A stretch of DNA of 47,335 bases from Hydrurus foetidus (lineage: Eukaryota): positions 1 through 47,335 of the forward strand of contig UYFQ01000310.1 in assembly GCA_900617105.1 (NCBI GenBank). The letters are read 5' to 3'. Position 1 is the stretch's first letter; every line of letters begins with the position of its first letter. Shown here piece by piece: positions 5,101 to 45,900 of this stretch. Position numbers and translations under genes: made by a program. A model generated the notes under the pieces. The model did no database searches and was not told where the DNA came from. It worked only from the letters and a program-made list of their open reading frames with translations.

Positions 5101-5940
5101 CTCTAACTACATCTTGTGCTGTTATGTCACTCTTATCTAATTTCCCCTGACCTATTAATTTAATTAACTGTCCTGGGCTGGCGTAACCTAACTTTCTCTG
5201 ATACTCTCTAGCTAACTCTGCTGACTTAACTTGTCTAGCTGTATACAGTTTCTTCTTATCCTTAACTGTCATGACCATGATCGATTTATCGAACGATACA
5301 TTCTTGTAACTGACATTTCTGTCTAAGTCGCATAGATATATGTTCGTAGACTGATCATGGACAAATCTATATACAGGTCCTAACTTAATCATCCTAACTT
5401 TGTAACAATCCTGGTCACTGTCATAGCTAACTGACTCGCTCGAGCTGACTATGTTACCGAAGGATAATATATTTGCTATACAATTGCTATCGTAGTAAAC
5501 TGTTCCGAAGTCCGTCTCGCCACACTCCGTGATTATCAAGGGTTCCCCTGAGGGTTCACTCCATTAATAATCATCGGGGTAGCGGACGGCATAATACTAT
5601 AAAATAAATCTCCACTACAAAATACTGACTCTGCTGCACATGTATCTAACAACACTTGTCTCTCTGTAAATGTGGAACTGTGTGTATATACATTCGCACT
5701 AAAAATCACAGGGTCACCCCCACAATTTTTACTGTTCAGTGGACAAAAATTCTCCAATCTGCATGCTTTATCTAACAATGGCACAAACGCAGGGTAACCG
5801 GTCGACGTTGCAAATACGTCATGCAGTCCGGTTTCCCCACACGGAACATTTACATCCTTAGCTAGTGAATCAGGTAAAGAAACATATAAGGGACTTACTT
5901 TTCCGAGGAAGGGTGACGCGCAGGTGCGTTCTTCCTCGGG
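2166..5940 (-). CDS. pol: Copia-1 pol (protease, integrase, RT, RNase H); split by single-base frameshifts at ~5540 and ~3705
   Basis: LLDTCAAES (PR); YIDLMF..IRIDGE..VERKIR (IN); KSRLVAGG, LKKALYG, IHVDDM (RT); YIDASYA, SSTEAELVA, YQDN, RTRHIDIK, ADLLTKPL (RH). Confidence 0.93.
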
Positions 5941-7409: not shown

Positions 7410-7592
7410 TTCGTACACACATATATTTCCCCATTTTCATCGTCATTCCGCAGGGAATCTTGGAAACTTGCGTCTTGCTTTCAAATCCACCAGAGGATGG
7501 ATTAACTGCACTTGCTCAGAATTTATATCACATAGTCTGTAATAGTAACAAATCAACGTTGCTGAAGAAATCAACGAAAGTAGTCCAGCACC

Positions 7593-10500
7593 ATGAAGCA
7601 AGCCGACCTTCTCTGGCTTCTATTCCTCACTGGCGTAGCAGCCATCAAAACAAATGAAGCCGATCTCGGAAAAGAAACGATGCGAACATATCAGCCCACA
7701 GTTGAACACACACCCCTTCCAAGAGTGGAGATCACTTTCACCCCAGTATTTATAGAAAATGATTTACCTACGGCTCTTCCGACTGAAGATCCAACAGCAA
7801 AGCCAACTTACCAGCCAACGCCCTCACCAACATACCAGCCAACAGCCGTGCCAACAGCGAAGCCAACACCTTCACCAACGTACCAGCCAACAGCCGTGCC
7901 AACAGCGAAGCCAACACCTTCACCAACGCACCAGCCAACAGCCATGCCAACAGCGGAGCCAACACCTTCACCAACGTACCAGCCAACAGCCTTGCCAACA
8001 GCGAAGCCAACACCTTCACCAACGTACCAGCCAACACCTTCACCAACATTTGTGCCGTCACCTTCACCATCTTTGGTTCCTTCGGTCCTAGCTTCCCCAA
8101 CTCTTTGTCCTACGGGAGCTCCTTATGCTCATGGACGCACTTATAAACCGACGGAAAGTCAAGAGTGTTTCAAACCGACGAAAAGTCCAGTCAGCAAAAA
8201 GCCAACATACAGTCCAACCAAAAAAAATCCTCCTACCCGTCGACCATCTACCCCAAAACCCTCTAAAGCCCCGAAGACGCCTAAGCCATCAACGGGAATG
8301 CCAATATGTCCGCTCTCACAGCCAACACAGTCACCAAGTGTCGATTCTTCTCCACCATTCCCAAACAAGTTCACACCAAGCCCTTTCTCCGTACAGCCAT
8401 CACCTGAACCAACACCTTCACCAACGCACCAGCCAACAGCCGTGCCAACAGCGGAGCCAACACCTTCACCAACGAACCAGCCAACAGCCGTGCCAACAGC
8501 GAAGCCAACACCTTCACCAACGTACCAACCAACAGCCGTGCCAACAGCGAAGCCAACACCTTCACCAACGCACCAGCCAACAGCCGTGCCAACAGCGGCC
8601 AACAGCCAACACCTTCACCAACGTACCAGCCAACAGCCGTGCCAACAGCGAAGCCAACACCTTCACCAACGCACCAGCCAACAGCCGTGCCAACAGCGGA
8701 GCCAACACCTTCACCAACGTACCAGCCAACAGCCGTGCCAACAGCGGAGCCAACACCTTCACCAACGCACCAGCCAACAGCCGTGCCAACAGCGGAGCCA
8801 ACACCTTCACCAACGTACCAGCCAACAGCCGTGCCAACAGCGAAGCCAACACCTTCACCAACGTACCAGCCAACAGCCGTGCCAACAGCGGGGCCAACAC
8901 CTTCACCAACGTACCAGCCAACAGCCGTGCCAACAGCGGAGCCAACACCTTCACCAACGTACCAGCCAACAGCCGTGCCAACAGCGAAGCCAACACCTTC
9001 ACCAACGCACCAGCCAACAGCCGTGCCAACAGCGGAGCCAACACCTTCACCAACGTACCAGCCAACAGCCGCCAACAGCGGAAGCCAACACCTTCACCAA
9101 CGTACCAGCCAACAGCCGTGCCAACAGCGGGGCCAACACCTTCACCAACGCACCAGCCAACAGCCATGCCAACAGCGGAGCCAACACCTTCACCAACGTA
9201 CCAGCCAACAGCCGTGCCAACAGCGGAGCCAACACCTTCACCAACGCACCAGCCAACAGCCGTGCCAACAGCAGCCAACACCTTCACCAACGTACCAGCC
9301 AACAGCCGTGCCAACAGCGGAGCCAACACCTTCACCAACGTACCAGCCAACAGCCGTGCCAACAGCGGAGCCAACACCTTCACCAACGTACCAGCCAACA
9401 GCCGTGCCAACAGCGGAGCCAACACCTTCACCAACGTACCAGCCAACAGCCGTGCCAACAGCGGAGCCAACACCTTCACCAACGTACCAGCCAACAGCCG
9501 TGCCAACAGCGAAGCCAACACCTTCACCAACGTACCAGCCAACAGCCGTGCCAACAGCAAGCCAACACCTTCACCAACGTACCAGCCAACAGCCGTGCCA
9601 ACAGCGGAGCCAACACCTTCACCAACGTACCAGCCAACAGCCGTGCCAACAGCTAGCCAACAGCGGACCAACACCTTCACCAACGCCAGCCAACAGCCGT
9701 GCCAACAGCGGAGCCAACACCTTCACCAACGCACCAGCCAACAGCCGTGCCAACAGCGGAGCCAACACCTTCACCAACGTACCAGCCAACAGCCGTGCCA
9801 ACAGCGAAGCCAACACCTTCACCAACGTACCAGCCAACAGCCATGCCAACAGCGGAGCCAACACCTTCACCAACGTACCAGCCAACAGCCGTGCCAACAG
9901 CGGAGCCAACACCTTCACCAACGTACCAGCCAACAGCCGTGCCAACAGCGAAGCCAACACCTTCACCAACGTACCAGCCAACAGCCGTGCCAACAGCGGA
10001 GCCAACACCTTCACCAACGTACCAGCCAACAGCCGTGCCAACAGCGAAGCCAACACCTTCACCAACGCACAAGCCAACAGCCGGGCCAACACCAATGCCA
10101 ACAGTGGAGCCAACACCTTCACCAACGTACCAGCCAACAGCCGTGCCAACAGCGAAGCCAACACCTTCACCAACGTACCAGCCAACAGCCGTGCCAACAG
10201 CGAAGCCAACACCTTCACCAACGTACCACCAACAGCCATGCCAGCAGCTGCCAACAGCGGAGCCAACACCTTCACCAACGCACCAGCCAACAGCCGTGCC
10301 AACAGCGGAGCCAACACCTTCACCAACGTACCAGCCAACAGCCGTGCCAACAGCGGAGCCAACACCTTCACCAACGTACCAGCCAACAGCCGTGCCAACA
10401 GCGAAGCCAACACCTTCACCAACGCACCAGCCAACAGCCGTGCCAACAGCGGAGCCAACACCTTCACCAACGTACCAGCCAACAGCCGTGCCAACAGCGG

Positions 10501-13500
10501 AGCCAACACCTTCACCAACGTACCAGCCAACAGCCGTGCCAACAGCGAAGCCAACACCTTCACCAACGTACCAGCCAACAGCCGTGCCAACAGCGGAGCC
10601 AACACCTTCACCAACGTACCAGCCAACAGCCGTGCCAACAGCGGAGCCAACACCTTCACCAACGTACCAGCCAACAGCCGTGCCAACACCTTCACCAACG
10701 TACCAGCCAACAGCCGTGCCAACAGCGGAGCCAACACCTTCACCAACGCACCAGCCAACAGCCGTGCCAACACCTTCACCAACGCACCAGCCAACAGCCG
10801 TGCCAACAGCGGAGCCAACACCTTCACCAACGTACAGCCAACAGCCGTGCCAACAGCGGAGCCAACACCTTCACCAACGCACCAGCCAACAGCCGTGCCA
10901 ACAGCGGCCAACACCTTCACCAACGTACCAGCCAACAGCCGTGCCAACAGCGGGCCAACACCTTCACCAACGTACCAGCCAACAGCCGTGCCAACAGCGG
11001 AGCCAACACCTTCACCAACGTACCAGCCAACAGCCGTGCCAACAGCGGAGCCAACACCTTCACCAACGTACCAGCCAACAGCCGTGCCAACAGCGGACCA
11101 ACGTAGCACCGACACCATCACCAACGTACCAGCCAACAGCCGTGCCAACAGCGAGCCAACACCTTCACCAACGCACCAGCCAACAGCCGTGCCAACAGCG
11201 GAGCCAACACCTTCACCAACGTACCAGCCAACAGCCGTGCCAACAGCGGAGCCAACACCTTCACCAACGTACCAGCCAACAGCCGCACCAACACCTTCAC
11301 CAACGTACCAGCCAACAGCCGTGCCAACACCTTCACCAACGCACCAGCCAACAGCCGTGCCAACAGCGGAGCCAACACCTTCACCAACGTACCAGCCAAC
11401 AGCCGTGCCAACAGCGGAGCCACCTTCACCAACGTACCAGCCAACAGCCGTGCCAACAGCGGCCAACACCTTCACCAACGTACCAGCCAACAGCCGTGCC
11501 AACAGCGGACCAACACCAGCCAACACCCAACACCTTCACCAACGTACCAGCCAACAGCCAGCCAACACCTTCACCAACGTACCAGCCAACAGCCGTGCCA
11601 ACAGCGGAGCCAACACCTTCACCAACGTACCAGCCAACAGCCGTGCCAACAGCGGAGCCAACACCTTCACCAACGTACCAGCCAACAGCCGTGCCAACAG
11701 CGGAGCCAACACCTTCACCAACAGCCGTGCCAACAGCGGAGCCAACACCTTCACCAACAGCGGAGCCAACACCTTCACCAACGACCAGCCAACAGCTGAG
11801 CCAACACCTTCACCAACGTACCAGCCAACAGCCGTGCCAACAGCGGAGCCAACACCTTCACCAACGTACCAGCCAACAGCCGTGCCAACAGCGGTTCACC
11901 AACACCAGCCAACAGCGTAGCCAACACCTTCACCAACGCCCAGCCAACAGCCGTGCCAACACCTTCACCAACGCACCAGCCAACAGCCGTGCCAACAGCG
12001 AGCCAACACCTTCACCAACGTACCAGCCAACAGCTTCACCAACGTACCAGCCAACAGCGGAGCCAACACCTTCACCAACGTACCAGCCAACAGCCGTGCA
12101 ACAGCGGAGCCAACACCTTCACCAACGCACCAGCCAACAGCGTGCCAACAGCTGAGCCAACACCTTCACCAACGCACCAGCCAACAGCCGTGCCAACAGC
12201 GGAGCCAACACCTTCACCAACGCACCAGCCAACAGCCGTGCCAACAGCGGAGCCAACACCTTCACCAACGTACCAGCCAACAGCCGTGCCAACAGCGAAG
12301 CCAACACCTTCACCAACGTACCAGCCAACAGCCGTGCCAACAGCGGAGCCAACACCTTCACCAACGTACCAGCCAACAGCCGTGCCAACAGCGGAGCCAA
12401 CACCTTCACCAACGCACCAGCCAACAGCCGTGCCAACAGCGGAGCCAACACCTTCACCAACGTACCAGCCAACAGCGAGCCAACACCTTCACCAACGCAG
12501 CCAACAGCCTTGCCAACAGCGGAGCCAACAGCGGAGCCAACACCTTCACCAACGCCAACAGCGAAGCCAACACCTTCACCAACGTACCAGCCAACAGCCG
12601 TGCCAACAGCGAAGCCAACACCTTCACCAACGTACCAGCCAACAGCCGTGCCAACAGCGGAGCCAACACCTTCACCAACGTACCAGCCAACAGCGAAGCC
12701 AACACCTTCACCAACGCACTTGCCAACAGCCGTGCCAACAGCTGCCCCAACACCTTCACCAACGCACCAGCCAACAGCCGTGCCAACAGCGGAGCCAACA
12801 CCTTCACCAACGCACCAGCCAACAGCCGTGCCAACAGCGGAGCCAACACCTTCACCAACGTACCAGCCAACAGCGTGCCAACACCGGAGCAACAACTTCA
12901 CCACCACCACCAACAGCCGTGCCAACAGCGGAGCCAACACCTTCACCAACGCACCAGCCAACAGCCGTGCCAACAGCGGAGCCAACACCTTCACCAACGT
13001 ACCAGCCAACAGCCGTGCCAACAGCGAAGCCAACACCTTCACCAACGTACCAGCCAACAGCCGTGCCAACAGCGGAGCCAACACCTTCACCAACGTACCA
13101 GCCAACAGCTGCCAACCAACCAACCTTCACCAACGCACCAGCCAACAGCCGTGCCAACAGCGGAGCCAACACCTTCACCAACGTACCAGCCAACAGCCGT
13201 GCCAACAGCGGAGCCAACACCTTCACCAACGTACCAGCCAACAGCGAAGCCAACACCTTCACCAACGTACCAGCCAACAGCCGTGCCAACAGCGGAGCCA
13301 ACACCTTCACCAACGCACCAGCCAACAGCCGTGCCAACAGCGGAGCCAACACCTTCACCAACGTACCAGCCAACAGCCGTGCCAACAGCGGAGCCAACAC
13401 CTTCACCAACGTACCAGCCAACAGCCGTGCCAACAGCGAAGCCAACACCTTCACCAACGTACAAGCCAACAGCTGCCCCAACACCTTCACCAACGTACCA

Positions 13501-13997
13501 GCCAACAGCCGTGCCAACAGCTGAGCCAACACCTTCACCAACGTACCAGCCAACAGCGAAGCCAACACCTTCACCAACGCACTCGCCAACAGCCGTGCCA
13601 ACAGCGGAGCCAACACCTTCACCAACGCACCAGCCAACAGCGAAGCCAACACCTTCACCAACGTACCAGCCAACAGCCGTGCCAACAGCGAAGCCAACAC
13701 CTTCACCAACGCACTCGCCAACAGCCGTGCCAACAGCGGAGCCAACACCTTCACCAACGCACCAGCCAACAGCGAAGCCAACACCTTCACCAACGTACCA
13801 GCCAACAGCCGTGCCAACAGCGAAGCCAACACCTTCACCAACGTACCAGCCAACAGCTGCCCCAACACCTTCACCAACGTACCAGCCAACAGCCGTGCCA
13901 ACAGCTGAGCCAACACCTTCACCAACGTACCAGCCAACAGCCGTGCCAACAGCGGAGCCAACACCTTCACCAACGCACCAGCCAACAGCGAAGCCAA
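7593..13997 (+). CDS. Secreted mucin-like Pro/Thr-rich cell-surface protein, 3'-truncated by a Gypsy LTR; many frameshifts within the array
   Basis: Signal-peptide-like [17 protein letters not shown]; Lys/Pro/Ser unique segment with Cys residues; long [16 protein letters not shown] repeat that hops between reading frames; the LTR TG begins at 13998. Confidence 0.85.
7791..8048 (+). repeat. First block of the 48-bp coding tandem repeat
   Basis: ccaacaccttcaccaacg(t/c)accagccaacagccgtgccaacagcg(g/a)ag units. Confidence 0.9.
8409..13997 (+). repeat. Main 48-bp tandem array (~5.6 kb, >100 units, with 36-bp deletion variants)
   Basis: Unit encodes PTPSPT(Y/H)QPTA(V/M)PTA(E/K); built from 12-bp ccaac sub-repeats. 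Confidence 0.97.
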
Positions 13998-14270
13998 TGT
14001 AGCCTAGCACGTACGTTCACCGTACACTTTATATACGTTTGTATATATTCACGTATGTATATAATTCACGCACCCATAGTCTATTTTCATCCACATCAAC
14101 TGTCCACCGGTAACGGACGCTCATCAGCATCAGCACCCTTGTAGCCTATCGTTTGTGTCTGTTGTTAGCTGCTTGCTCGCTTCTTTCACAAACTGTAACT
14201 AACCTAACAGTTTACTCCAGCATACCGTCTTTACCCGGATTCTTCGTACTCGAATCCGGCCGCGACTACA
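13998..14270 (+). repeat. Gypsy-1 5' LTR
   Basis: TGTAG...CTACA; homologous to 19908-20181. Confidence 0.95.
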
Positions 14271-14371
14271 ATATTAATATTGAGAGTTGTTAGACGAACT
14301 CTCGTTACTGGAGAGCTAGATAGATTTTCCAACTGCCGACATCCGACGACCATCTGGCACTGATCACCAGT

Positions 14372-17300
14372 ATGGTTTCCAGCAACCGACGAAGACTTTC
14401 CAGGGTATCGGCCGTTTCGACGGCTCCCCTGTCGATTTTCCAGGAAGCGCCATCAACCGACGCCGTCGTCGATATCGTCGCCGACACCATGGACGCTAGC
14501 ACAACGGGAGATTCCGACTCGGCGAATCCTCCCTCGCTTCCAGATCCATCTTTTGCTGCGACTGACGTCGCAGCTCATCTATCTTTCGCCTCTAATCCCT
14601 TCTCGAATTTGGCCCCCGGCGTGGGAGGGGGAAACCCCTTGCAAAATTTTTTGCAGCCATCTTCCGCTCCATCTGGAGCTATTACAGCGGATCTAGCGAT
14701 ATCCCAAGCGGGGGAAGTCTCTGTTGAACATCAACAACTTCCCCAGCGAGTGGATGGAGTATCTTTGGAGCCGGCGCCTTCGCCGTCAGCACCATCGCCA
14801 TCATCATCCACGATGATATCCATCACCGCCGACACCACCGCCATCACCGCCATCGCCGCCACCGACATCACGCCGACACCTGTCATTGTGCGTGATGTTT
14901 TGCCTGCTTTGCCTGTGCTGCCTGTGTTATCTGCCGCAGTTTTGCCTGCAAACCCGGTGCAAACCGATTCCCTGTTGCTCACTTCAGACAGCAATGTCAT
15001 GAACAGAAATGTTCAGAGTGTTGCAACTTTTGCTACCGTTGGTGGTGTTACTAACGATGTTGTTGTTTCAAACCTTGCTGCACGCTATCTATTACCTCAT
15101 GAAAAGGTTAGAAAGCTCAGCAAGGTTCCAACTCATCTGGAAGTTTTAAGCATCACCAACGACCTTCGCAAGAATGGTTGCCCCTATACGTTTCTTGACG
15201 TGGTACCATTAGACGTCGAGCAATCTCTTGTAACACTCCTGCAAAGGCAGTATTGCACTGAGAGAGCAATTCGCGACGAGTGCGAAGAGTGGAAGTCATG
15301 GACTACCGAGAGATTCTGCAAAGAACTCCTCAAGGCAGTACCTGATGAGTCCATCGATACACCTTTGGGTCAGGCATCGTTCCTCGAGCAAGTCTCATCG
15401 TTCAATTTCAGATTTGATTTGAACAACATTGAGACTGACTCCTGTAACGATACTGCCCTTGGTGCATTGGTAGCAAATTTCCCAGCACTACTGCTGAGGA
15501 ACAGCTTAAGGCTGTTAAGATTCTAGAGCGTCAGTTGCCTACCCACCCCGTCAATTGGCAGCTCATCTTACGCCGCAAGGTGAACGGTGAGACTGTTCCA
15601 ATCAACGATTTGAAAGATTTTCGATTCGTTTGGTGGACGCAACTGACTACTCTCAGAAACTCAGCTAACGAGCTTCGGGCTGCTGGTTATGAGGTTACTC
15701 CAGGCCCAGCTACGCGTTCTAAAGATAAGCCTATCTCCAAACGCGCTGCTGAGCCTGATGAGGACACCATCAAACCACGTGCTAAGTCCGCGAAGACTGC
15801 AAAGTCTTCGAATCCCTCAACCACTCGCACCGTACAGGTCTGTGTTGGTTGTGGAAGATCTAATCACACTATCTCTGTGTGTAGATTTACTGCATCACCC
15901 TACTTCAATTCTTCTGACAGTGCATATGCTGATAGCAATGCATTTAAGAAACTGAAAAAGGATTACCCTGATGCATTGGTTGCAAGAGGAGCGTACGTGC
16001 CTACCACCTCCTCTTCTTCCTCTTCTTCTACTGCTACCGCGTCAGCCTCGGCTGTACCGGAGGGTCCGTCTAAGCCGGTCACTAAGCAAAAGAGCTTAAA
16101 GAAGACAAGTAAGTTATCATCAACTATTAGTTTCACTGATGTTGTTATTCCTTCTTCCATATTGGGAGCTCTTACGAACCTTTCGTCAGCTGACTTTCTA
16201 ACTGCTACTGTCACCTATGTGTCACAGCCCAGCCAGCCAAGAAATGAAGTCCAAGTGCTGATCGATACGGGATCGCTCGCCGGCAATTTTGTTGCCATGC
16301 GTGTAATTAAGAATTTTCATTTAGAAGAATTTATTATTTTCGACAAGACACTGACTGTTTGTTCAGCCTTAGATGGAAAATGTTATAACATTTCTAAGTC
16401 TATAAATTTGAAAATGACTTACTTTTCTGAACGTTTAAATAAAAATACTTTTTTAAATTTCAAAGCAATTATTTTAAACAAGTCTTCAGTCGATGTTGTG
16501 ATCGGACGAGTGACAATTCGGGAATCACAAATATTCCTCGAGTTGCCTAGTCAATTAGCATCGACTAATATAGTGCACAGGGCAGCGACCTCAGTAACAC
16601 CCCAAAGGGTTATTGTATCAGGTCTACTAGCTTCTCTCGTCATTCAATCCGAGAATACATCTCAACTGGCTATGCCAGATGATGATGAAATCGGTGAACA
16701 TGAGGCTAGTACCTTTTCACCTTGGTTACCGGATACCAATCCGGAACCGGTTGACCCAGTATCCCTGATTAACATATCGGGTACTCCTGAACTTCAGGAG
16801 TTGATTAGACTACTCTGTATTGAATACAGAGATATCTTTTCAAATACACTTTCATCTCAGCCTGCTTCTATTCCTCCTTTTGATCTGGTTGTTCAGGACC
16901 CTAAGTGGCGTGTCTCTAAAAATAGACAACCACCTAGACCTCAATCAGCAGCCAATCAGAAGGAGATTACTAGACAATTAAATATCCTCATTGAGCAGGG
17001 TATTATTGAGAAATCCACTGCGGCTTATTATAGCCAAGGATTTTTAGTAACTAAGGCTGACGGATCTAAAAGATTCGTTATAGATTACCGTAACTTGAAC
17101 GAATGTACGGAACATGCCTCTTGGCCCGTACCGAACATAACGGAAATGTTACAGAGAATCGGTTCTCAGAAACCGACGATCTTTGGCACGGTGGATTTTG
17201 CTCAAGCATACCATCAAGCCGCATTAACACTCGCTACTAAAAAATATACTTCGTTTATATTATATAGTGGTGTCTATCAGTTTACTAGACTACCTTTTGG

Positions 17301-19575
17301 TCTAAAGCAAGCACCTTCTTATTTTCAAGAGATGATTGCTACTGAAGTGTTAAATACGTTACTTTATAGAATTTTAGAAATTTATATCGATGACGTTAAC
17401 ATTTTTGGAAACAGTCCTGACAACTTTGTTGCACGACTGCGAGAATTCTTTTCTCGCGTTCGTCTCCATAAAATGATCCTTAAACCATCCAAATGTTATC
17501 TTGGCTATGCCGATTTAAAATTTGTTGGTAAGGTTATATCACAAGAGGGACTTAGAATGTCCCAGAGTAAAATCCAATTAGTTTTGGATTTTCCTTGTCC
17601 TACTGTATCCAAACAACTTAAAAGTTTTCTTGGATTGGTAAACTATTTCCGTGATTTCATCAGAAATCAGTCTACGATAGTAAGACCGTTACATGCGTTA
17701 CTTACAAATTATCAAAGAACAAAACGGATAGTATGGACACCAGAAGCAACTTCTGCTTTTAATGAAATAAAGGAACAAGTATCGAAATGTACTACCATTC
17801 ATTTCATTAGTGATACTGCACCAATCACGTTGCACACTGATGCATCTGATTATGGTATCGGTGGTTACCTCTTCCAGACTATTGATGGAAAGGACTATCC
17901 GGTTGCATTTGTAAGCAAATCTCTTTCTGGGTCTCAACTTCGTTGGTCCACTATTCAAAAGGAAGCTTATGCAATTTACTATTCTTGTATTTTTCTACAA
18001 TCACTTTTACGTGATAGATTATTTACAATTCGAACGGATCATAGAAATCTGTTATACATATATAACAATTCTAATCCAATGATTGTTCGGTGGTATGTAG
18101 CACTCTCAGAGTATACATATAAAATTGAATTTATTAAAGGTGTTGATAATGATATCGCCGACTCTATGTCTCGACTATGTCGTAACAATATGATCGACTC
18201 ACCTAAGGAATACTCTGCAGATATGATTCTTGCAGCAGCTATTATTCCGAAAATTCAACTCACCGATATGCAATACAATGCTATATCATCAGTTCACAAT
18301 TCTATGGTTGGTCATTTTGGACTAGCCAGAACTATGAAACGATTAAAAGCAAATCAACATAAGTGGGAATTCATGGAAAATCATGTTAGATATTTCATTG
18401 ACTTTTGCCCACAATGTCAAAAGATGAGTATGATTAAAATACCTATTCATGCTCATCCTTTTACGACTTCGTCGTATTACCCTATGGAATGTTTAAACAT
18501 CGACTTTGTCGGTCCATTTCCTGACGGAGGACATATCCTCGTTATCATTGATACATTCACTCGTTGGACTGAATTGTATCATACTACTGATTCAACTGCA
18601 CTATCCGCCGCCCAATGTCTAATACAACATTTTGGTCGTTTCGGAGCACCTCATCAGTTAAGATCAGATAACGGTCCCCACTTTATTGCTGACGTAATAC
18701 GTGAGTTTTTATCGTTTGTTGGTACTCGACACTGTTTAACATTAGCTTACTCTAAGGAGGAAAATGCTATTGTTGAACGTATGAACAAAGAGATTAACCG
18801 TCACATCCGATCACTCACATACGACAACACTTCATTAGAAGATTACAAATTAGCTTTACCTTTCGTTATGAGAATAATTAATTCAAATCATAGCGATCGT
18901 TTAAAGATATCTTCTGCACAATTACTGTTTGGTAACTGTGTTAATCTTGATCGTGGTATGTTCCGTCCGATTGACGAAGTTCCTCCTTCAAAGAAATCTA
19001 TGTCAGTCTATATGAGTAACCTTCTCAAGACACAAGATAGTCTTAGAAAAGCAGCTGCTAAAGAACTACTTCGCACTGACTTACTTCATATGACACATAA
19101 AAAACAATTACAACATACGGATTACCAACCCGGAACGTATGTATTGGTACATTACCGTACAGGTCACCCGCCTACACGTCTTCATACGTTCTGGCGTGGT
19201 CCTATGAGAGTTATTTCCGGATCAAATTCAAGGTTTACCCTTTATGATCTTATCTCTCATGTCGAAAAAGAATATCATGTTTCAGATATGAAACCTTTTC
19301 TTTTTGATCCACTACGTGTTGAACCATTAGACGTTGCTCGTCATGATTATATGGAATTTTATATTGAAAATATCCTTGAACATCGTGGTGACTTACAACG
19401 CAAAACCTCGTTAGAATTCCTTGTCAAATGGTTAGGTTATGCCGATGAAAACAATTCATGGACATCCTATGCCAATCTTCGTGATACCGAAAAATTACAC
19501 GAATACTTGACATCTAACAATCTTCAACGTTTAATACCTAGAAAGTTTACAAACGTTGTAGATACAAATATATAA
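14372..19575 (+). CDS. gag-pol: Gypsy-1 gag-pol polyprotein (one indel at ~15480)
   Basis: CVGCGRSNHTISVC knuckle; LIDTGS (PR); RLPFG, YIDD (RT); LHTDASDYGIGG (RH); HNSMVGHFG..CPQC, IDFVGP, RSDNG (IN); C-terminal chromodomain ENILEHR..FLVKWLGY..NSW. Confidence 0.95.
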
Positions 19576-19891
19576 TACTAAACAATATCCATGATGGATT
19601 TCAACCCTATTTTTTGTTTGTTGTCGGTCAACATTCTTTTTGGGAGTTTTTAGTCAGTAAGAGTCTGACATAATTGTTTAGATATTATACCCCGACTCTA
19701 AAGAGTGCCGCCGATGAAAATTGTGTCGACAACATTTTGATTTTCATATCCACACATACTACCGAATCTTTAACGATAGATAGGCGTATGGGATCCCTGA
19801 ATAATTTGAAGTAACACCTTTTTCAAATGAGCTATACGTTACCACATGTATTTTCACTCACATTCATTTTCTTTCAATTAACTTAAATTGT

Positions 19892-19907
19892 AAGGAGGAA
19901 GGAGTAG
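19892..19907 (+). promoter_or_regulatory. Gypsy-1 polypurine tract
   Basis: AAGGAGGAAGGAGTAG before the 3' LTR TG. Confidence 0.85.
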
Positions 19908-20181
19908 TGTAGCCTAGCACGTACGTTCACCGTACGCTTCATACACGTTTGTATATTACCCACGTATGTATATTATTCACGTACCCATAGTCTATTTTCA
20001 TCCACATCACCTGTCCACCGGTAACGGACGCTCATCAGCATCAGCACCCTTGTAGCCTATCGTTTGTGTCTGTCGTTAGCTGTTTGCTCTCTTCTTCCAC
20101 AAACTGTAACTAACCTAACAGTTTACCTAAGCATACCGTCTTTACCCGGATTGTTCGTACTCGAATCCGGCCGCGACTATA
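19908..20181 (+). repeat. Gypsy-1 3' LTR
   Basis: Homologous to the 5' LTR with roughly 15-20 differences; ends TA rather than CA. Confidence 0.93.
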
Positions 20182-21112
20182 AGTGCAGTCCGCATTCAGA
20201 TCAATGTACATAAGTTCGCCACAGCGGGAGAGATACTATTCGATGTACTCAACATCGACTTCATAGGCCCCTTCCCTGACGGCAAACACGTCCTTGTCAT
20301 CGTCGATTCATTTTCAAGATAGACAGAGCTGTTCCACTGTAGGGACAGTACGGCCAAGTCGGCAGGCGGCTGTCTCTTGGAACACTACGTCGTTTTGTTT
20401 CACCCAACCTTATACGCTCCGATTGAGGACCACACTTCGCCAATGAACTCATTGAGAAGTTCCTACTCGCGGTTGGTACACCACACAACCTCACCCTGGC
20501 CTATTCGAAGGAAGAGAACTCCAGCGTTGAGCGGGTCAACATGCGACCAACCGCCTTCACGGTCGTTCGAGTTCGAGACACAACAGATCATCAATACCAG
20601 CCAACAGCCATGCCAACAGATAGTTCAACAGCTCTACGGGGGTTTCACCGGGTAACTTACTCTTTGGCAACCGCCTCGACTTGAACAGAGGCATTCTCAC
20701 ACCCTTTCAACAAGCCCTCCCATCAAAGACACCAGACTCACGAATCATGGCTGACATGATCAACGCTCAGGATACAGCGCATAGAACGGTTTAAGAGATG
20801 GCGCAGGAGAATGCGGCCCAACGCTTAACGGAACATTCGGATCCAACCGTCTCCCCCATCGGTTCGTACGTTCTAGCACAGTACGCTACAGGCCCGCCTA
20901 CGCGATTACACACACGCTGGCAGGGCTCGATGAAGGTGATCTCCCACAGAGATTCAGAGTATGTTCTCTTGCACATCGTTTCTAAGAATACTAAGAAGAT
21001 TCACGCTTCAAAGCTCAAGATATTCCTGTTCGATCCAGCTAAAATCGAACCAACGGATTCGGTGCGTCGCGACTACATGGAGTTTTATATCGAAGCTATC
21101 ACAGCTCATGGG
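20182..21112 (+). pseudogene. Degenerate Gypsy integrase / start of chromodomain, from another family
   Basis: FDVLNIDFIGPFPDGKHVLVIVDSFSR*; GPPTRLHTRWQG; RRDYMEFYIEAI; stops and frameshifts. Confidence 0.85.
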
Positions 21113-21436
21113 CAGGTAGTGAGTGCCGCGACGATGAAGCCTGGAGCGCTCATTACCCGTGGGGTGTAATCCATGGCTAGATCCATGAGGTTAGGGCAAA
21201 GGCGGGACAAGGTGTCTGCCCATTTGTTCTGGGAGCCTGGCACGAAATGGATCTTGAAGTCCAGTTCTTGCATCGCTATGGACCAGCGAGTGACCATCGA
21301 GTTTGGGTTATTGTCATATACGTCAGATTCAGGTGATCTGTGTGTATAGTGAACACCCGGTCTCTTAGGAGAGTGCCCATCTGTTGGCAGCAATGAAAGA
21401 TCGCGTATGCCTCCTTCTATATCGTTGACCAACGAG
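21110..21436 (-). pseudogene. Inverted Gypsy RNase H fragment
   Basis: RWSTI*KEAYAIFHCC..LLRDRVFTIHTDHLNL..MVTRWSIAMQELDFKIHFVPG..ADTLSRLCPNL on the minus strand. Confidence 0.85.
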
Positions 21437-22168
21437 ATTTGGTGGCGTTGAATGACTTGCTGACAAACGTGATTGGTTGTTATAGTCTACGCTATACATC
21501 ACACACATGTATGTACAGCCACGCCGCACGCTGCATGTACCCACTAGTTTTCCGTACCAGTTTTTAGGTTTCTGGAGCTTTGACAACTTCAACATGCGAT
21601 GAACTTTCCATTGATTATCTCATCCTCCTTCCATTTCTTTATCTCTTTACTTCAAGTAAAAAGACCGTTTTCTTACCAAAACACTTACCGACTTCGGGCT
21701 CTTTGAGTCTGATCCCTTTCTTTTTTGGCCCTTTTGCCAGCTTGTCAACTGATCAGCCCTTTTGCGGATCCGTAGCACAGCATGAAACTCGTTTTCTCGT
21801 TCTCTACAAAGTCGACAAGTCTGTCCTTTGATCCTTCTCGTTGAAGCACCTTTTGAACGCCGACAAGCAGTGAAAGCCTCGGCACAGTGGAAGCTTTCAA
21901 CAAGAAGGGTAAGCTCAAAGATCATCTCGGTAGATTTGCTCCCTAGAACAACTCTACATTTTTCTCTCGTCTCCGCGTCAACTCCTATATGTCAACATCT
22001 AAGAACCCGCGCGGCAAGAAGACGTCGCTTCCAGATCCTGCACCTCCAGGAACAAGGGAAGCCGATTCTGAAGCAGCGATACCAGATCCTGATGAATCAA
22101 TCATGGATCCTGTTGGCGAGCTCCGCCAAATGTTTGACCAGCTTATCCTCGCTACATCAGCCCAGGGC

Positions 22169-22598
22169 TGTAGCCTTATTGCATTCCTAAGGGGATACAA
22201 TGTGTCTAGGTTAACTAGGTACAATAGGTATATTATACGCCCAGATTCCACTTTTAGGTCTTAGTTCCACATATGATGTAAATGCACTTTAGCGTACACA
22301 TCACTTGTATATACTCAACTGTAAGATACTAACACAAGTCTATTCCACCGACTCTCGCTTCCCTTGCCCGCCGCTTGCACCAACCAGCCACCAACATCAG
22401 CTCCAACGTCCTAGGCCCCGCCCCAGACCACAATATCGATATTCGGTCGATACCGAAGCCTTTTTTCGTGAGAAGTTCGTTTCTCCGCTCCATCAACTTT
22501 AAATCCATCACCTATTTCCGACAGTCGAAGACAATGGCTCTCCGACGCCAAGACAAGAGGATTAGCACCATCAACTCCCTTCGCCGACAACGACAGCC
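22169..22598 (+). mobile_element. Extra Gypsy-2-family LTR (22169-22432) plus leader and first gag codons, truncated by the next LTR
   Basis: TGTAGCC...ACCACA LTR, AATATCGATATT, then MALRRQDKRISTINSLRRQRQP, homologous to the Gypsy-2 gag start. Confidence 0.88.
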
Positions 22599-22983
22599 TG
22601 TAGCCTTATTGCATTCCTAAGGGAATACAATGTGTCTAGGTTAACTAGGTACAATAGGTATATTACGCTCAGATTCCACTTTTAGGTCTTAGTTCCACAT
22701 ATGACGTGAATGCACTTAGCGTACACATCACTTGTATATACTCAACTGTAAGATACTAACACAAGTCTATTCCATCGACTCTCGACTTTGCCTTCGTTTG
22801 CCCACGCCTTCCGTCCTCCGCTTTCCGTCCTCCGCTTTCTCCAACTTCGCCTCCCGTCCTAGGCCCCGCCGTCAGACCACAATATCGATATTCGGTCTTC
22901 ACCGAAGTTTCCTCCGAGAAAGTTTTTCTCTTTTCCGACTTTTTGTCTTCGACTCCTCCAACTTAAACCATCACGTCAAAGTT

Positions 22984-25900
22984 ATGGCTCTACGCCGCCA
23001 AGACAAAAAGACATCCTCCATCAACGCCCTTCGGCGAAAGCAGCAACCTCGTGCTGTAGCCGTCGCGTTCCGACAACGCTATGACGACCATCACAATCGT
23101 AGTGGAGACGCAGAGTCTCCTGGGCCACCTGCGGCTCAGGACCCCGCCGGCGACCTGTCTGCACCGATTCCTCAGCGGAATTCGGAGCCTGCGGTCATGT
23201 CTGTCATTGATATTCCTGTCATTTCGGCGTTATCTGCTTTGTCATTGCAACCAGCTTCGGCTGGACACCAGCTTCGGCTGTGATACCAGCTTCGGCTGCG
23301 ATACCAGATTCAAATGCGACACCAGCTATTGCTGAGAATCCTATTCCAAGGACGATGGCACCACCCCAGCAATATGTGCAGACGGGTGAGAGAGCTCCTA
23401 AGTTGAGCGCCGTGCCCTCTCGTCAGGAAGTACTACGGGTAATGGAGGTCCTCCTTTCAAATGGAACTCCATTTAAACCAGTTGACGTAGTCCATGTTTC
23501 CAACCATCAATCGTTTACAACGCTTCTCAAGCGTAAGTTTGCAACTGATCCCGATCGTCGCGACTCCTGTAACAATTGGAAACATTGGTCGAATCAATTG
23601 TTCTGTAGAGAACTCAATCTCACAGTTCCTACATCAGCTGTCAATCGAACTGACAAGCTGAGTTTCATTGAAACTGTCTCTCAGGTCGCACTTCAATTCG
23701 ACCTGAAGGATAAATCAGTGGAAGACAAGACAGATCAGCTTTTAGCTGATATTGTTGATGGATTCCCTGATGCAACACCCGCTCTCCAACTTCAGGCAAC
23801 CAAAATTCTCATCGATAAGTTGCCTGTCGAACCTATCAATTGGAGAGCAGTGTTACAGCGTAGTCTTAACAATACAACGCCAAGACTCATTACAATCGAA
23901 GACTTTCGATTCGTATGGCTTGCGCAGCTTGCTAAGCTACGAGAATCAATTGATGCCTTACGGTTCATTGATGTCTCTCCTTTGTATGGTGATCACTCTC
24001 GCCAAATCAAAGCTCCTCCTCGTTCCTCTCAGGACAAAATCAAAAAACGTCCACGAGAGAGCGAACAATCAGTGCAATCAGACAAGTCTGACAAATTCGA
24101 AAGACCTCTGTGCACAGGTTGTGGGAGACTTGGCCATTTCGTCGCCACGTGTTTCTACACTACGTCTCCGTACTATAACAGTACAGACGCACCCTATATC
24201 AACTCTGAGGGTCATAAGCAGTTGTTGAAAGTCGATTCAAAGGCTAAGTTTATTCCAACTTTACCTAAGACATCGACCTCTTCTTCATCGTCTTCCTCTT
24301 CTTCTTCCTCTTCGTCAAAACCTGCTACTTCAACAGCAGACTCGACAAACGCTGCGAAGAAACACAAAGGTGAGCAACTATGCAACCTAAATTCATCATC
24401 TATTCTTTCCGATGATCCAGAACTTATTCCTTTCTTCGTATCTCCCCTCTCACAGGAGGTTATGCTGGAAAAAAGTAATAGAGTCTTTACTCTCCTGGAC
24501 ACCGGCTCTTTTGCTGGCAACTTTATACATCGCCGCATTATAACTAATCATAATTTCACACAATTCGTTTCTAACTCTTCAAAGAAATTGTGTAAAGTTT
24601 GTAGTGGATTAGATAATCATTGTTATGATATTTCTGACACTATAGACTTAACTCTTTCTTATTTTTGCCCTGATTTAAATAATTATTATACTTTTCAAAT
24701 CACGGCTTATGTTTTAAACGATTCGAAATTTGATCTAATAGTGGGACGAAAAACAATTCGCGAATTGAATTTATTTTCACGTTTCCCCGATCAAATATCT
24801 GCCAATGCTTCATCAAGCACTACCTCATTAGCGGAAGTTTTATCTTCTGAACAAGTGGATATAACGTGTGGCTGTCAGCCTAAGGAGAAGTTGCAACCCT
24901 CTGATGGCTCCCCAAAGGTCGATCCTTTAACCCAAAAGGTGAAACCGGCAGTAACCCAAACACACGTTATTCTAGCTTCACTAATACAAGAGTCTGAAAG
25001 ACTTTTTGAGGCTGTGCCCCCTGATGAGGACGAAATCGACGACTCGATCAAGGACTCGTTTTCACCTTGGATAGATGAATTTCCTGATACTGACCCACTC
25101 TCGCTAATAAACTTAGCAGGTGATGAAGATCAGAAAAATAAACTTCGGTTACTAGTACACGAATTCAAGGATATATTTAGCAGTGAACTTTCGGCCACTC
25201 CTGCTGATATTCCACCGTTTGACTTTCATGTCAATGACGACCAATGGAGAGTCCTAAAAATAGACAACCTCCATGGGCTAAATCAACAGTTGATCAAGCT
25301 GACATTCTCAGTCAAATTAAAAACTTGAAAAACAAAATATTGTTGAAAAATCAAACGCGGCTTATTATAGCCAAGTTTTACTAGTTCCAAAATCTGATGG
25401 AACTAAGCGCATGTGTATTGATTTTCGGAATCTCAACAATTGTACCGAAGATAAATCACATCCTATTCCACACATCGGTGAGATGTTGCGTAGAATAGGT
25501 GCACATAAAGCAAAAGTGTTTGCTGTACTTGACCTCACTCAAGGTTACCATCAAGCACCACTTACACTTGCTGCACGTGCTTATACTGCATTCATACTTT
25601 TCTGCGGAGTATATCAATTCACTCGTTTACCCTTTGGGCCAAAACAAGCACCCTCCTATTTCCAACAGATTATGACGACTGTTGTGTTAGCAGGGCTGAT
25701 ATACTCTATATGCGAAATGTACATAGATGATTGCAATGTTTTCGGTAAAGACATTGACGAACTCATTTCTAGACTTCGTCTTGTTTTTGAACGCTTTAGA
25801 AAACACAAAATATTCCTTAAACCGAATAAGTGTTATCTAGGCTATGCCGAAATAGATTATGTTGGCAAAGTTCTATCTGCAGATGGACTTAGAATGTCAC

Positions 25901-34478: not shown

Positions 34479-37400
34479 ATGAAAGGCAGAGGCAGAGGCC
34501 GAGAGCACAATCCCGCAGGCGGTGGAGCAAACCCTGCCAATAGTGGCAGAGGGAATGCTGGCCGTGGTGCGATGCCTCCACCAAGAACAGGAACGGTAGC
34601 CGCGATCGCCGCATTCCTGGATCTTGGAAGAAAGATGAACCATGGTAGCGTAAGCGCATGGATGAGAAAGTTTCGCGAATACACACGTGCAAACTACAAG
34701 TCCGATATCTGCGAAATATTCGGCAATGAGGGCATACCGGGTACTTACCCGCAATGTATCGCTCCGGTAGACATACCTCTCGATGCTGGGTTTATGGTCG
34801 CTACCAAATGGAAGAGAGCACTAGAGCTCTACGACAAGCTAGTCCTGACACTAAGGGAAGACCGAAAACAAGTTTTCGGTCTCATGCTGGGACAGATTGG
34901 TGAGCAGTCAAAGTCGACAGTAAGAGAAACGAAATCCGGCATTACGGCTATGCTAGAGGAGGACCCGCTATTGCTACTCCGAGCAATCATTCTGACCCAC
35001 CTCTCAGACCCGAGACTAGGTGCGGATCAGAATTTGCTGAGAGTACGCATGGCGTATGAGACCGTGAGAATGGAGCCGAACGACGCGTTGAAATTCTACT
35101 ACCAGCGCTTCAAAGCGCTGAAGACTGGTTACGAGGACACCATGCATACCCTAGGGGTCATGCCGAATACAACGAGGCCATGACCGCCCACAACGAAATA
35201 CGTTGTGGATGAAGTTCATGAACGGGTTGAATTCGGGGTACCGTCATAATATAGAGTACTACGAGCACAGACTCAAAGACTGGCCAGAGGCTCTCGAGGA
35301 CGCGTACCTCGAGATGGCCAAGGTAACACCGAAGAAAGCAGCTGCTGCTGCAACACCACCCAACCAGACCAACATTTTCGCGACGAAAACGGCTGGAGGT
35401 GAGAAACCAGCGGAGAAAGGTAAAGTCAATCGGAACGGGGGCAGAGGGAAGGGTGGGCGTACGTCGTACGGCACCCGTCCCGGGAACTGTAATCGGTGTG
35501 GTGTAGCTGGATACTACTCTTATGAGTGCACGGCCAAGGATAGCCAAGCGGGTGCACAAGCACCGAGTGGAAAGTCGGTAAACCAACCGAGATACATTAT
35601 TCCTCACCTGTACACTCACCCACACCTACACCCGTACATACACCTGCACTTGCATTCCCACACACACTTATACATACACGCACCGATCCTCCATGTTTGG
35701 CTGATTCCACTAGCGGAATTGAAACATGTGATCATATTGTTTTTAGTGCTAATACATGTAATATATATAACACGATTAGAAGTAGACACATACTGCTTGA
35801 TACATGTGCTGGTGAGTCGGTATTCAACGACTCATCCCTGCTGCACAGTGTCGAACACGCACCCACACCCGGGATTGTTAGCGGGGTAAATCCGAATGGA
35901 AAACCGCTGAAATCAAGAAACGTGGGGTGTCGGCGTTCGGCAATGTGTATTATAGCGTTGACTGTGCTGGTAACATATTGTCTTCTGGTATCGCTCTACG
36001 TGACTGTACTGATGTTAAGTACTTACGTGACTATGATTGTTACATAGTGCAAGATGTCAGCGGAAAATATTTTTATATACACTCACGAGATGAAACTATG
36101 AATATATACCACTGCAATCTTGATACTATGGTAACAGAATGCACGCCAATGTTAGTTACGACAGTAGAACAGAACAAGAAATATTCAGTTAGAGAAGTCA
36201 GAGACACGTCGTTAGCTAGAGACTATCAGCGTAGATTAGGATACGCTAGCGCAGCACAGACTATTAAGTTGATATCCCAAGGGAATTTGACTAATAGCAA
36301 AGTGACTGCGCGAGACGTACATAGAGCCATTGATATATGGGGACCGGACGTGGGATCCCTTAAGGGGAAGACCACTAGTCACCAGGCCAAGTTAGAAGAG
36401 AAGTTACCATTGATAGGTATAGAGTACAAGACAGAACAAATCATGTACGTAGATATAATGTTCGTCAACCAGGTACCATATCTAGTATCAGTTGTTCAGC
36501 CTATCGAGTTCCTATACGTTAGCAAGTTAGCTAACAGAGAACACAAGAGCATATGGAACAGTTTAAAGACTTCATTAGCAAGCATGGTAAAGTACAGATT
36601 CAGAGTTAAAATGATCCGAGTAGATGGCGAGGGTGCAATTAACACAGAATGGTTTCATAACAAAGTCGGCTTAAGAGGTATAGTATTAGACGTTACCGGA
36701 GCCGGAGAAGCCGTAGCCGTAGTCGAGCGTAAGATACGACACATAAAGGAGAGAGTCAGATCAGTGATTAATTCTCTGCCATTCTCATTAAACGAGAAAT
36801 TAGAAGTGTGGTTAGTTAAGTATGCAGTCAGTAGAATTGTATTAGCTCCCACACGTAACTCACTTAACGACATCAGTCCGAGAGAAAAATTAACCGGAAG
36901 AAATTTAGACGTAGATAAGGAGATTAAACATGGTTTTGGTGATTATGTCCAAGTGCATAATGATGTCATTAATAAATCTACCAAACCAAGAACAGCCGGG
37001 GCCATAGCACTAATGAGCTCCGGTAACCTAGAAGGTTCATGGTACTATATGCTGTTAGCTAACGAACGTATTGTAAAACGTACTAAAGCGACTGTACTAC
37101 CTATGCCTGATGAAGTGATATTACACTTGAATGTACTAGCTTCAAAAAGAAATCTGCCAATGTTAAACAGCCTGTATTTGAGAATAGTAATCACACTGTA
37201 TTCGATGGTGACGACGATGTTGAAGATGATAGTGCGTACATTGGTGATGTCGAATATGAAACTGTCGATAAAAATGCTAACGCAAACTACACCGATGAGA
37301 TTATTGAAGATAACGATCACAATGACAACGACACATATCTTGAATCACAACTCGACATGTCTGATGAAAATCAATAACCCACATTAGATGAGTACGTAGA

Positions 37401-42919: not shown

Positions 42920-45900
42920 TGTGGCTCTGGATGGGGAAAGGAAGAGGGGATGTCTAAAGGTAGTAGTTAGTTACAGCGGGGAAAGCTAGAAGCTAGGGTG
43001 AACTTCTACGTGGAGGCTGTAAGTGGCTACGACAATACAACAGTCTGTAGTGTACAGTGGGTAGTGTACCGTAGTACTATCCGGTAGGATCGGGACCTTG
43101 GACCCGGAACTACCACACTACCCCCACTTATCCTTCTTTCTCAACGAAAAATCTAACCTACACTAAACTATGGCGAAACCCCCGTTTCTTTGTTTGAAAA
43201 TACCAATATTTAACTAACAACATAACAGAAACCGAAAATCAAAACTATTTACAATAAATACAAATGTGCATGTATATACAAAAGAAATTTCGAAGGGATT
43301 TCGGAGATATTGAGAAAGATAAGAATAAAAGAGTATGTACAAAAACAGAATCGTTCTGTTGTACGAGGGTCAAACGTAATTATGTCAGATTTTTACTGAC
43401 TAAAAAAACCATAAAACTCCCTTGTGAGGACAAAAATTAGGCCAAAAAATCTTCAAAAGATATTACGTTTGAGCCCAAACCTCGGTGGTTGATCCCTCAA
43501 GATTTCTGGGAACAAAACGCGACATGTTATTGTTCCTCAAGTATACATGAGTGCGTCACAGAGCCGGAGATTCTTCCAAGGCTCCCATGTATTATGTGAG
43601 TCATCATAGTTGAGCCATTTCGCATGGAACGACATCGTAGTCGGTTTCTTTGAATCACCCGAGTGATTAAGAACTTTCACAACGAAATACTCCATGTAAT
43701 CGCGACGTGCTGTATCAGCAGGTAAGCCCATCGAAGGGTCATAATTGAATATTTTAAGATTCTTTACATGTACACTATTGTGTTTATGTGTAATTAAGTT
43801 CGCGAGAACATACTCGGATCCTTCAAAGGATGCGACACGGAAAGGACCTTTCCATTTAGTGTGTAATCGAGTTGGAGGATGTTCTTGTTTTACCAAAACA
43901 TACGACCCTGTAGGGAATACTGTCAAACCGGATGTCGACTTTTTGTGTTTTTCATCACATTTTTGAAGTAAATCGATCGCCGCATCAAGAACCTTGTCCT
44001 GTATTTCGATCAAATCAGCGATGTGTGTTAAATTTGAAGATGTTATCATTGGTAACAAATGAGGTGTTAAAATCCCTCGATTCAAATCAAGTTTATCCGC
44101 GAATAGGATAGATGCCGGGCTTGCACCCGTACGTTTATTAACTGAACTATTAATAATTCGTTGTACGAACGGAATGCATTTTGCATAATGGACAAGAGAC
44201 GGTGTATCGAACACCAGTCCTTTTAAATGTCTATTTACCTCTTTGTTGACTCGTTCAACAATCGCATTTTCTGAGAGGAATAAGATAGAGTGAGGTTGTG
44301 GGGTGTACTCGTAAGATCTAAGAACTCTTTTATCAGATCATTAGCGAAATGGGATCCACGATCCGATCTTATCATGTTTGGCGAGCCGAATTGACCAAAA
44401 TGTGTAAATAAACTTTCTACTGCAGATTCAGCAGTAGCGTCCTTACACTAGAACATTTCTGTCCACCTGGAGAAGGTGTCAATTATGACGAGAATATACC
44501 CCTTATCGGGGAAGGGACCCACATAGTCAATATTCAACGTATCGAAAATTGCGTGAGTGGATGTTGAAAAATGAGCCGCATTGATTTTTGCATCAGCCGC
44601 ACTTAGTTTTTGACAACAGGGGCAGTTACGTATGTACGAACGGACGTGCTGTTTCATATTTTTCCACACTTGGTTCAGACTGTACAGTCGAGTGAGGGTA
44701 CGGTCGACACCGTTGTGACCAACAGTTGCATTGTGGCACATTTGAATATGAAGTATTTGTTCATCTATGGCCGGTTCGAAAACCGTTAAAGCCGCCACAC
44801 TTGTTGAAGAAGATGACGATGATGATGATGATGATAAAACATCTCTGATAATTGTCATCGGTAGAGCAATCTCAGTAAGGTTCGGACATAACCGTGACAG
44901 CGCATCGGCTAATTCGTTATCCGATCCTTTCACAAAATGAACGGTGAAATCGAGTTCTTGAATTGCAATTAACCACCGTGCTACAATCAAAGTAGGGTTT
45001 TGCTTCATATATGTCAAATTCATATGATCAGTATGAATAGTGAATTTTCTGTCTCGAATAAGATTATCGAGTTGTTGGCGGCAATAAAATATAGCGTAAG
45101 CCTCCTTTTGTATTGTCGACCAATCTATCTGCGATGCAGATAGAGATTTGCTAATAAAAGCGATTGGTTTCCACTCGTCATTAACGACTTGGAATAAGAC
45201 ACCACCGATTCCATAATCAGATGCATCAGTATACAATCTGATGGGTGAGGTTTCATCGATGAAATACATCAATGGACCACGAGATACCGCGATCTTTGTC
45301 TCATTGAATGCGTTTGTCCCTTTGGGGGTCCAAATAATTGAAGAGCTTTTAACCGCCTTTGGGTCCACCATCATGTGAAGTGGTTTAACCTTTTCCGAAT
45401 GAAATGGTACAAATTGACGGAAATAATTGGCTAAGCCAAGGAATCCCCGTAACGCCGTAACCTCTTTCGGAAGTGGAAAGTTAAGAACTGTCTCAATCTT
45501 TTCTTTCGACATGGATAAACCATCTTTGTCGATGACTCGTCCAACGTATTCGATACGCTTGAGACCGAATCGGCGTTTGTTTGCTTTGAGTTTAAGATTC
45601 TTAAGTCGAAATCTTTCAAAGACTTTTCTCAATTTCATGAGAAACTCTGCCTCGCCCCGGCCATATACAATGTAATCGTCGAGATACATGTCGCAACAGC
45701 TGTATATGAGACCGTGAAGGACCGTTGTCACCATCTGCTCTTGAAAGTAAGAGGGGGCACGACAAGGGCCAAAAGGCAATCTCGTGAATTGAAACACCCC
45801 CATGAGACATATAAATGCCATATAGATTCGGTGGGGTGTATATAAGGGAGCTTGATGGTAACCCGCGGTTAAATCCATCACCCCATAAATATCCAGTTTT

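Follow-up and report, generated by a model that had tools for sequence, protein, structure and literature searches.

How can a retrotransposon that encodes its structural protein and its enzymes in a single reading frame provide the former in excess over the latter? Many LTR retrotransposons have one open reading frame (ORF) and no recoding signal, and the source of their Gag excess is presented as open in the accessible text of two studies (PMC5580714; PMC3735527). Control of the Gag:Pol ratio by a retained intron, which an earlier note on the DNA analyzed here gave as established for Copia elements, is indeed described in these sources for BARE1 of barley (PMC3735527) and EVD of Arabidopsis (PMC5580714). 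The note had predicted a mini-intron of this kind in Gypsy-1, a chromodomain Gypsy element in a contig of Hydrurus foetidus, of which the whole stretch of 47,335 nucleotides that was analyzed is called the window in the following. The locus thus raises the question whether a Gypsy element obtains Gag in the same way.

Gypsy-1 and its gag/protease boundary

Gypsy-1 (Table 1) has the domain order Gag-PR-RT-RH-IN, as in Ty3/Gypsy elements (Metaviridae), the best solved relative of its reverse transcriptase (RT) is the Ty3 RT (E 7e-61), and its integrase is followed by a C-terminal chromodomain (Pfam Chromo, E 4e-9). Since chromodomain Gypsy elements of Ectocarpus fall outside the chromoviruses according to the available text of PMC12477816, the chromodomain alone is insufficient for assigning Gypsy-1 to this group. 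The LTRs of 273 nt are identical in 255 of 273 bases between the 5' and the 3' copy, and no self-priming complement of at least 7 nt was found inside the LTR. A target-site duplication was not found either, the 5-bp flanks being different, and this copy may therefore be recombinant or nested. The zinc knuckle that had been noticed upstream of the donor is present as a CCHC pattern, to which Pfam zf-CCHC gave no match.

In the window, the element is split into two ORFs (14324-15526 and 15448-19575) with a one-base frameshift near 15480. This frameshift is absent from the contigs of three of four RNA runs and from those of all four runs of a second, DNA-like set, and many relatives of Gypsy-1 are single proteins of 1500-1900 residues, indicating that the family is single-ORF and that the copy in the window itself is damaged or mis-assembled. 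The description as a single-ORF chromodomain Gypsy hence holds for the family, and for the chromodomain, but not for the window copy. Further one-base indels at 24042, 25251 and 25318 are, like the one at 15480, missing from most matched contigs, which suggests long-read assembly errors or decay in the contig. A programmed frameshift, whether at the gag/protease boundary or around 15480, was considered and rejected, as the shift in gag occurs in this copy only and no slippery heptamer is found in the 400 nt upstream of the catalytic Asp in Gypsy-1 or in its neighbor Gypsy-2.

Table 1. Features of Gypsy-1 and Gypsy-2 in the window.
Feature	Position	Strand	Basis or detail
Gypsy-1, whole element	13998-20181	+	~6.2 kb
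Gypsy-1 5' LTR (TG...CA)	13998..14270	+	LTR comparison
Gypsy-1 gag to splice donor (exon 1 coding part)	14372..16108	+	ORF reading
Gypsy-1 Gag CCHC zinc knuckle, C-x2-C-x4-H-x4-C	15841..15882	+	sequence pattern
Gypsy-1 candidate GT-AG intron	16109..16227	+	119 nt (3n+2), open in Gag-Pol frame, frame-shifting if removed
Gypsy-1 5' splice site GTAAGT	16109..16114	+	phase 1
Gypsy-1 branch-point-like motifs	16190..16202	+	CTGAC at 16190, CTAAC at 16198
Gypsy-1 predicted first protease beta-strand, inside intron	16195..16218	+	AlphaFold strand 23-30, block pLDDT 93
Gypsy-1 dual-coded stretch	16228..16247	+	unspliced: hairpin loop of the protease; spliced: Gag tail of six residues plus TGA
Gypsy-1 retropepsin catalytic DTG	16264..16272	+	sequence, model, structure match
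Gypsy-1 RT, RNase H, integrase, chromodomain	17050..19509	+	Pfam RVT_1, RT_RNaseH, Integrase_H2C2, rve, Chromo
Gypsy-1 polypurine tract	19892..19904	+	sequence
Gypsy-1 3' LTR	19908..20181	+	LTR comparison
Gypsy-2 candidate GT-AG intron	24370..24455	+	86 nt (3n+2), same place as in Gypsy-1, open in Gag-Pol
Gypsy-2 seven-residue spliced tail and stop	24456..24478	+

The splice signals that the earlier note had read at the boundary are all in place. The donor is where it had been claimed, both branch-like motifs were recovered, with candidate branch A residues 34 and 26 nt upstream of the end of the acceptor, and the acceptor TCACAG ends at 16227, the whole segment having the claimed length and being open within ORF 15448-19575. 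GTAAGT occurs a single time on the sense strand of the element and TCACAG a single time in its internal region. Removal of the segment would lead to a tail of six residues, the last two being Lys, followed by TGA at 16245-16247, 19 nt upstream of the catalytic Asp codon at 16264, and thus to the out-of-frame stop just before the protease that had been foreseen. The predicted products are a spliced Gag of about 585 aa versus a Gag-Pol of 1734 aa. Features of a major (U2-type) intron are present, namely a GT donor matching U1, a branch motif, a YAG acceptor and a U-rich body, as judged independently of the intron norms of the host. Other acceptors near 16168-16255 were also tried, and only the one at 16227 agrees with the joint described below.

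Splice junctions in public assemblies

Is the segment ever removed? Four freshwater metatranscriptome assemblies, which consist of assembled contigs and not of raw reads, were compared with Gypsy-1 14280-19900 (5.6 kb), and contigs matched at 88% likeness, a level at which joints from other organisms are possible. The sole joint across these four RNA runs, found in run X2, connects 16108 to 16230 with two letters in between, which is 16108^16228 plus one substitution, silent if the spliced frame is read. This joint has a depth of 4.68 in one contig, a shorter side of 30 nt and no letters shared between the two sides. The junction that had been proposed for an RNA test therefore exists at the predicted bases in one contig of one of the four runs; in the other three, which have little or no cover there, it was not seen. 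The intron sequence itself is also found in runs X2 and X1, with a depth of 2.82 at 16179 in X2, indicating that X2 holds both forms of Gypsy-1, as far as contigs of possible DNA origin can tell. Contigs of the RNA runs span gag more fully than pol and those of the DNA-like runs are flat, albeit contig depth cannot rank the parts of an element and the contrast is therefore no sign of early termination. The Gypsy-1 junction is absent among 24 of the 27 joints listed for the second run set, which includes run X9, and none of 36 shorter-protein matches that were searched ends in the spliced tail.

Gypsy-2 has a counterpart of the intron, and its spliced stop lies 22 nt upstream of the catalytic Asp codon at 24498. 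This intron and its junction were predicted from sequence before the contig comparison and then matched to the base in run X9, where the exact GT..AG joint of 86 nt, 24369^24456, is seen in one contig with a depth of 689.6, near that of the unique flanks (581.7 and 655), a shorter side of 25 nt and three letters that fit both sides. X9 is probably DNA because its cover is flat and extends to a dead fragment and because it contains a contig of 72.7 kb. The Gypsy-2 junction is thus likely to be one intron-less retrocopy, a record of past splicing. It follows that an RNA contig alone is no proof of splicing in the sample from which it comes; the Gypsy-1 junction could similarly derive from an intron-less copy, and an RNA library may hold DNA. 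As a separate observation, the 5' end of Gypsy-2 (22169-22880) carries two LTR copies 430 nt apart.

Could both joints be mere deletions in DNA, arisen at AG/AGG microhomology in single dead copies, with no splicing in living cells? For Gypsy-2, the three shared letters, the DNA-like run, the depth of a single locus and many other deletions around the joint would fit such an origin. The Gypsy-1 joint, in contrast, has no shared letters, both joints agree to the base with predictions made beforehand, and deletions would leave unexplained the choice of CAG and GGT codons, the locked phase, the T-richness and the branch motifs found across families (see below), so that we regard deletion as very unlikely.

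Conservation of the splice signals in distant families

An alignment of 42 relatives, used as query, retrieved 55 metagenome loci and no loci in viral contigs, and a single query (P0001) retrieved none in either. Together with the two window elements these make 57 sequences, 42 of which have the protease site and 38 of which are open over the 300 nt before it; the four left out are short (L005, L044) or have a stop upstream (L014, L019). The 38 sequences fall into 24 families at <60% identity, 22 outside families plus Gypsy-1 and Gypsy-2, and the median identity between these families in the boundary region is 26%.

Donor-acceptor pairs were scanned over all nine combinations of phases, and the boundary was compared with windows in Pol and Gag. 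A phase 1 donor with a phase 0 acceptor was found in 14 of 24 boundary windows versus 2 of 222 Pol windows, and in the strict scan of outside families only in 12 of 22 versus 2 of 210 windows in Pol and none of 66 in Gag. This pair leads at all nine threshold settings (3-17 of 22 families, the best other pair reaching 0-4). The best donor is in phase 1 in all 24 families, the introns are 79-161 nt long and their length is 3n+2 in 23 of 24. The T content of the intron segments is 36%, compared with 18% on each flank, and in 11 of 24 families the acceptor is preceded, at a distance of 18-45 nt, by a CTRAY branch motif, as compared with 37 of 333 control CAG codons. At the protein level, Gln occupies the acceptor place in 76 of 79 usable full-length relatives (of 120 listed), where 34% would be expected. 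The thresholds were set after part of the sequences had already been viewed, and as the families are also akin to each other, the p values of the main tests (1e-8 to 1e-14) overstate independence. The strict scan misses ten of the 22 outside families. L049 and L052 have no convincing acceptor, making their introns doubtful, L021 and L042 need an AAG acceptor, and in two of the 42 protease-bearing loci (L014 and L019) the reading frame does not run through the intron. In these two the donor is kept and the intron is closed or out of frame (about 517-527 in L014 and about 666-700 in L019); like L021 and L042 they seem to use an AAG acceptor. With these exceptions, both splice sites, the shift of the frame and the early stop are kept in Gypsy-2 and in about twenty outside families, a conservation that the earlier note had named as a check in sister copies. 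A layout that is repeated across such diverged families and a junction at the predicted site indicate that the signals in Gypsy-1 are more than chance.

Alternatively, the signals might be by-products of protein constraint, a Lys-Gly patch and a Gln after the first protease strand, that are spliced as noise, while Gag excess is achieved by recoding or degradation. The acceptor does come after a conserved structural strand and Lys-Gly readily spells AAG/GT. However, the synonymous choice is constrained as well: when the acceptor Gln is placed from the protein alignment alone, 18 of the 19 outside families that have it use CAG, against a background of 337 of 987 (34%), three of the 22 outside families being without this Gln, and the Lys-Gly near the donor has GGT in 9 of 14 cases versus a background of 11 of 55. 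In addition, families differ in whether Gly, Ser or Cys codons make up the donor, and recoding would have to do without a slippery heptamer in the 400 nt before the catalytic Asp of either window element and with a frameshift found in the window copy only. The by-product explanation is therefore largely refuted and is the least probable of the alternatives considered here.

A putatively dual-coded protease loop and the predicted tails of Gag

What does the intron encode when it is kept? An AlphaFold model of Gypsy-1 16129-16608 (mean pLDDT 86) has a retropepsin fold, its structural matches being Ddi1 and retroviral proteases. In the model, strand 23-30 and strand 39-45, which runs into the catalytic Asp, flank the loop that bears the acceptor. 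The intron of Gypsy-1 is thus predicted to encode the linker between Gag and protease together with the first protease beta-strand. New relative to the earlier reading are this predicted reach of the intron into the fold of the protease and the tail that an overlapping frame would supply to the spliced Gag.

The loop with the acceptor is 12 to 71 residues long among relatives, and the tails read in the spliced frame comprise 1-55 residues; relatives with long loops have tails of 22-55 residues that are RGG-rich. For the 22 families that remain when L049 and L052 are left out, the tails consist of 28% Gly, 15% Arg and 15% Lys, together 58%, as compared with 18% for Pol read in the same frame. 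None of the eight loops with at least 20 codons has a stop when read in the spliced frame (258 codons, with a background of 9.7% per codon), and the third frame of these loops contains six stops. Under synonymous reshuffling the probability of an open spliced frame is 0.004-0.29 per family. The overlapping-frame tail of these relatives thus looks to be under selection. In an RT tree of 18 of the 24 families, the other six being without a matching RT motif, and with no named outgroup, long tails occur in two branches, six of the eight in one and two in the other. Short tails are found in Gypsy-1 (six residues), Gypsy-2 (seven) and four other families (1-5), and L007 has a loop of 19 codons yet a tail of five residues. 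In 20 of the 24 families, the distance from the spliced-frame stop to the downstream catalytic Asp is 13-34 nt. As the tails are very short in several families, it is the stop and not the tail that appears to be the constant feature.

These tails raise the possibility that the splice is real and selected but serves mainly to make a different Gag, acting as an RNA chaperone, in packaging or as a factor restricting copy number, with the ratio to Pol being set otherwise, for example by Pol degradation. The strongly basic or RGG-rich tails and the long loops kept open in the spliced frame would be consistent with this idea, as would precedents in the accessible text of two papers: the spliced RNAs of Cer1 encode a regulator and not Gag (PMC10309623), and a regulatory role was proposed for truncated Gags of sunflower (PMC7730604). 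On the other hand, the spliced product retains the whole Gag including the zinc knuckle, and the tails of both window families and of four others are short, which makes this alternative rather unlikely, albeit less so than the two discussed above.

Proposed mechanism

The junction in public data and the matching signals in about twenty distant relatives make optional splicing likely, yielding much Gag and little enzyme. With good confidence we therefore propose that 16109-16227 is an optional splice, the removal of which leads to a Gag-only mRNA and the retention of which leads to the Gag-Pol mRNA and genome. If the intron is kept, Gag-Pol mRNA and genomic RNA would result, with the linker and the first protease strand being translated. 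If it is removed, the frame would shift and an early stop would be reached, giving Gag with a short basic tail or, in relatives with long loops, Gag ending in an RGG-rich tail from the other frame. By analogy to BARE1 and EVD, the efficiency of splicing would set the excess of Gag over Pol. The basic or RGG tail may help Gag to bind RNA. Furthermore, some of the spliced RNA may be full length and become reverse-transcribed, as suggested by the probably genomic Gypsy-2 junction.

A wider proposal can be put forward only tentatively, and we would not quite call it probable. It states that in a whole clade of chromodomain Gypsy elements with a single ORF the capsid protein comes from a splice inside the first hairpin of the protease, that the loop (12-71 residues as protease) is dual-coded and gives the spliced Gag alone a selected RGG-rich or basic RNA-binding tail, that spliced and polyprotein Gags hence differ, that spliced RNA can be retrocopied into Gag-only elements, and that translated mini-introns are perhaps general.

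Comparison with known systems

The closest parallel is BARE1, a Ty1/Copia element with a facultative intron of 104 nt at the start of the protease (PMC3735527). According to the accessible text, BARE1, like Gypsy-1, has a single ORF and a short, U-rich GT-AG intron of similar length at the gag/protease boundary, which is translated when kept and the removal of which shifts the frame and leads to a stop within a few codons. However, BARE1 belongs to another superfamily, and Gypsy-1, which has Gypsy domain order, a Gypsy RT and a chromodomain, works like BARE1 without being its relative. The BARE1 stop comes three residues after Gag, whereas relatives of Gypsy-1 add up to 55 overlapping-frame residues, and replication of spliced BARE RNA was argued against (PMC3735527), whereas Gypsy-2 has a probably genomic intron-less junction. 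EVD, also Ty1/Copia, resembles Gypsy-1 in protease-centered splicing, a frame-shift stop and a Gag-only mRNA, found in many families (PMC5580714), and the accessible text presents this shGAG splicing as a Ty1/Copia strategy. The EVD intron removes the whole protease and its splicing is coupled to early polyadenylation (PMC12786077, accessible text); the Gypsy-1 intron contains only the first predicted strand. That splice efficiency sets the Gag:Pol ratio was measured for EVD (PMC5580714) and argued for BARE1 (PMC3735527), as far as these texts are accessible.

Among Gypsy elements, host splicing together with a genome that retains the intron is known from Ogre, CRR, the env elements Bagy2/Athila and Cer1 (PMC3735527; PMC6317226; PMC7197481; PMC3315495; PMC10309623), and the accessible text of PMC3735527 names for Gypsy splicing only env, Ogre and CRR. 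Unlike in Gypsy-1, the splice in Ogre lies between two ORFs and enables the whole polyprotein, that in CRR removes rt, and env and CERV are extra proteins. In the accessible text of these sources none of these elements is described as having a gag/protease mini-intron giving a Gag-only mRNA, and a full-text literature search found no Gypsy element with such an intron, albeit supplements and subscription papers may hold cases.

The splice solution documented for Copia is thus found conserved across Gypsy families at a median identity of 26%, which points to convergence. Any genome can be searched for its signature, which consists of a phase 1 donor, a CAG-coded Gln after the first protease strand and a stop ahead of DTG. 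Reading of the loop in two frames would also account for the unusual Thr/Glu/Ala-rich insertions, up to 70 residues long, that these proteases contain, and it predicts C-termini of Gag which DNA-based annotation overlooks. If the wider proposal is true, translated mini-introns may be a general, overlooked source of Gag excess in single-ORF Gypsy elements of intron-rich eukaryotes.

Neighboring features of the window

Gypsy-1 starts directly at the end of ~6.4 kb of 48-nt tandem repeats (7584-13997) that encode a protein rich in Pro and Thr (Pfam PT repeat), the N-terminal part of which has a hydrophobic stretch, and the start of the repeats is overlapped by an LTR of Copia-1. The PT-repeat gene is, we presume, reminiscent of stramenopile proteins. 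On the other side, a degenerate Gypsy integrase fragment (20182-22168) abuts the 3' LTR of Gypsy-1. A third chromodomain Gypsy occupies 43537-47335 on the minus strand, with its gag/protease boundary beyond the window.

In Copia-1 (about 5770-5900, minus strand), gag and protease are in different frames, with a strong donor (GTAAGT) downstream of the zinc knuckle. Removal of a 127-nt GT-AG segment would join the two in frame, which may be an Ogre-like splice or merely an indel of that copy. In Copia-2 (35155-35889) the frames of gag and protease differ as well, the shift being opposite to that in Copia-1, and one donor-acceptor pair of 70 nt is present at about 35812-35881.
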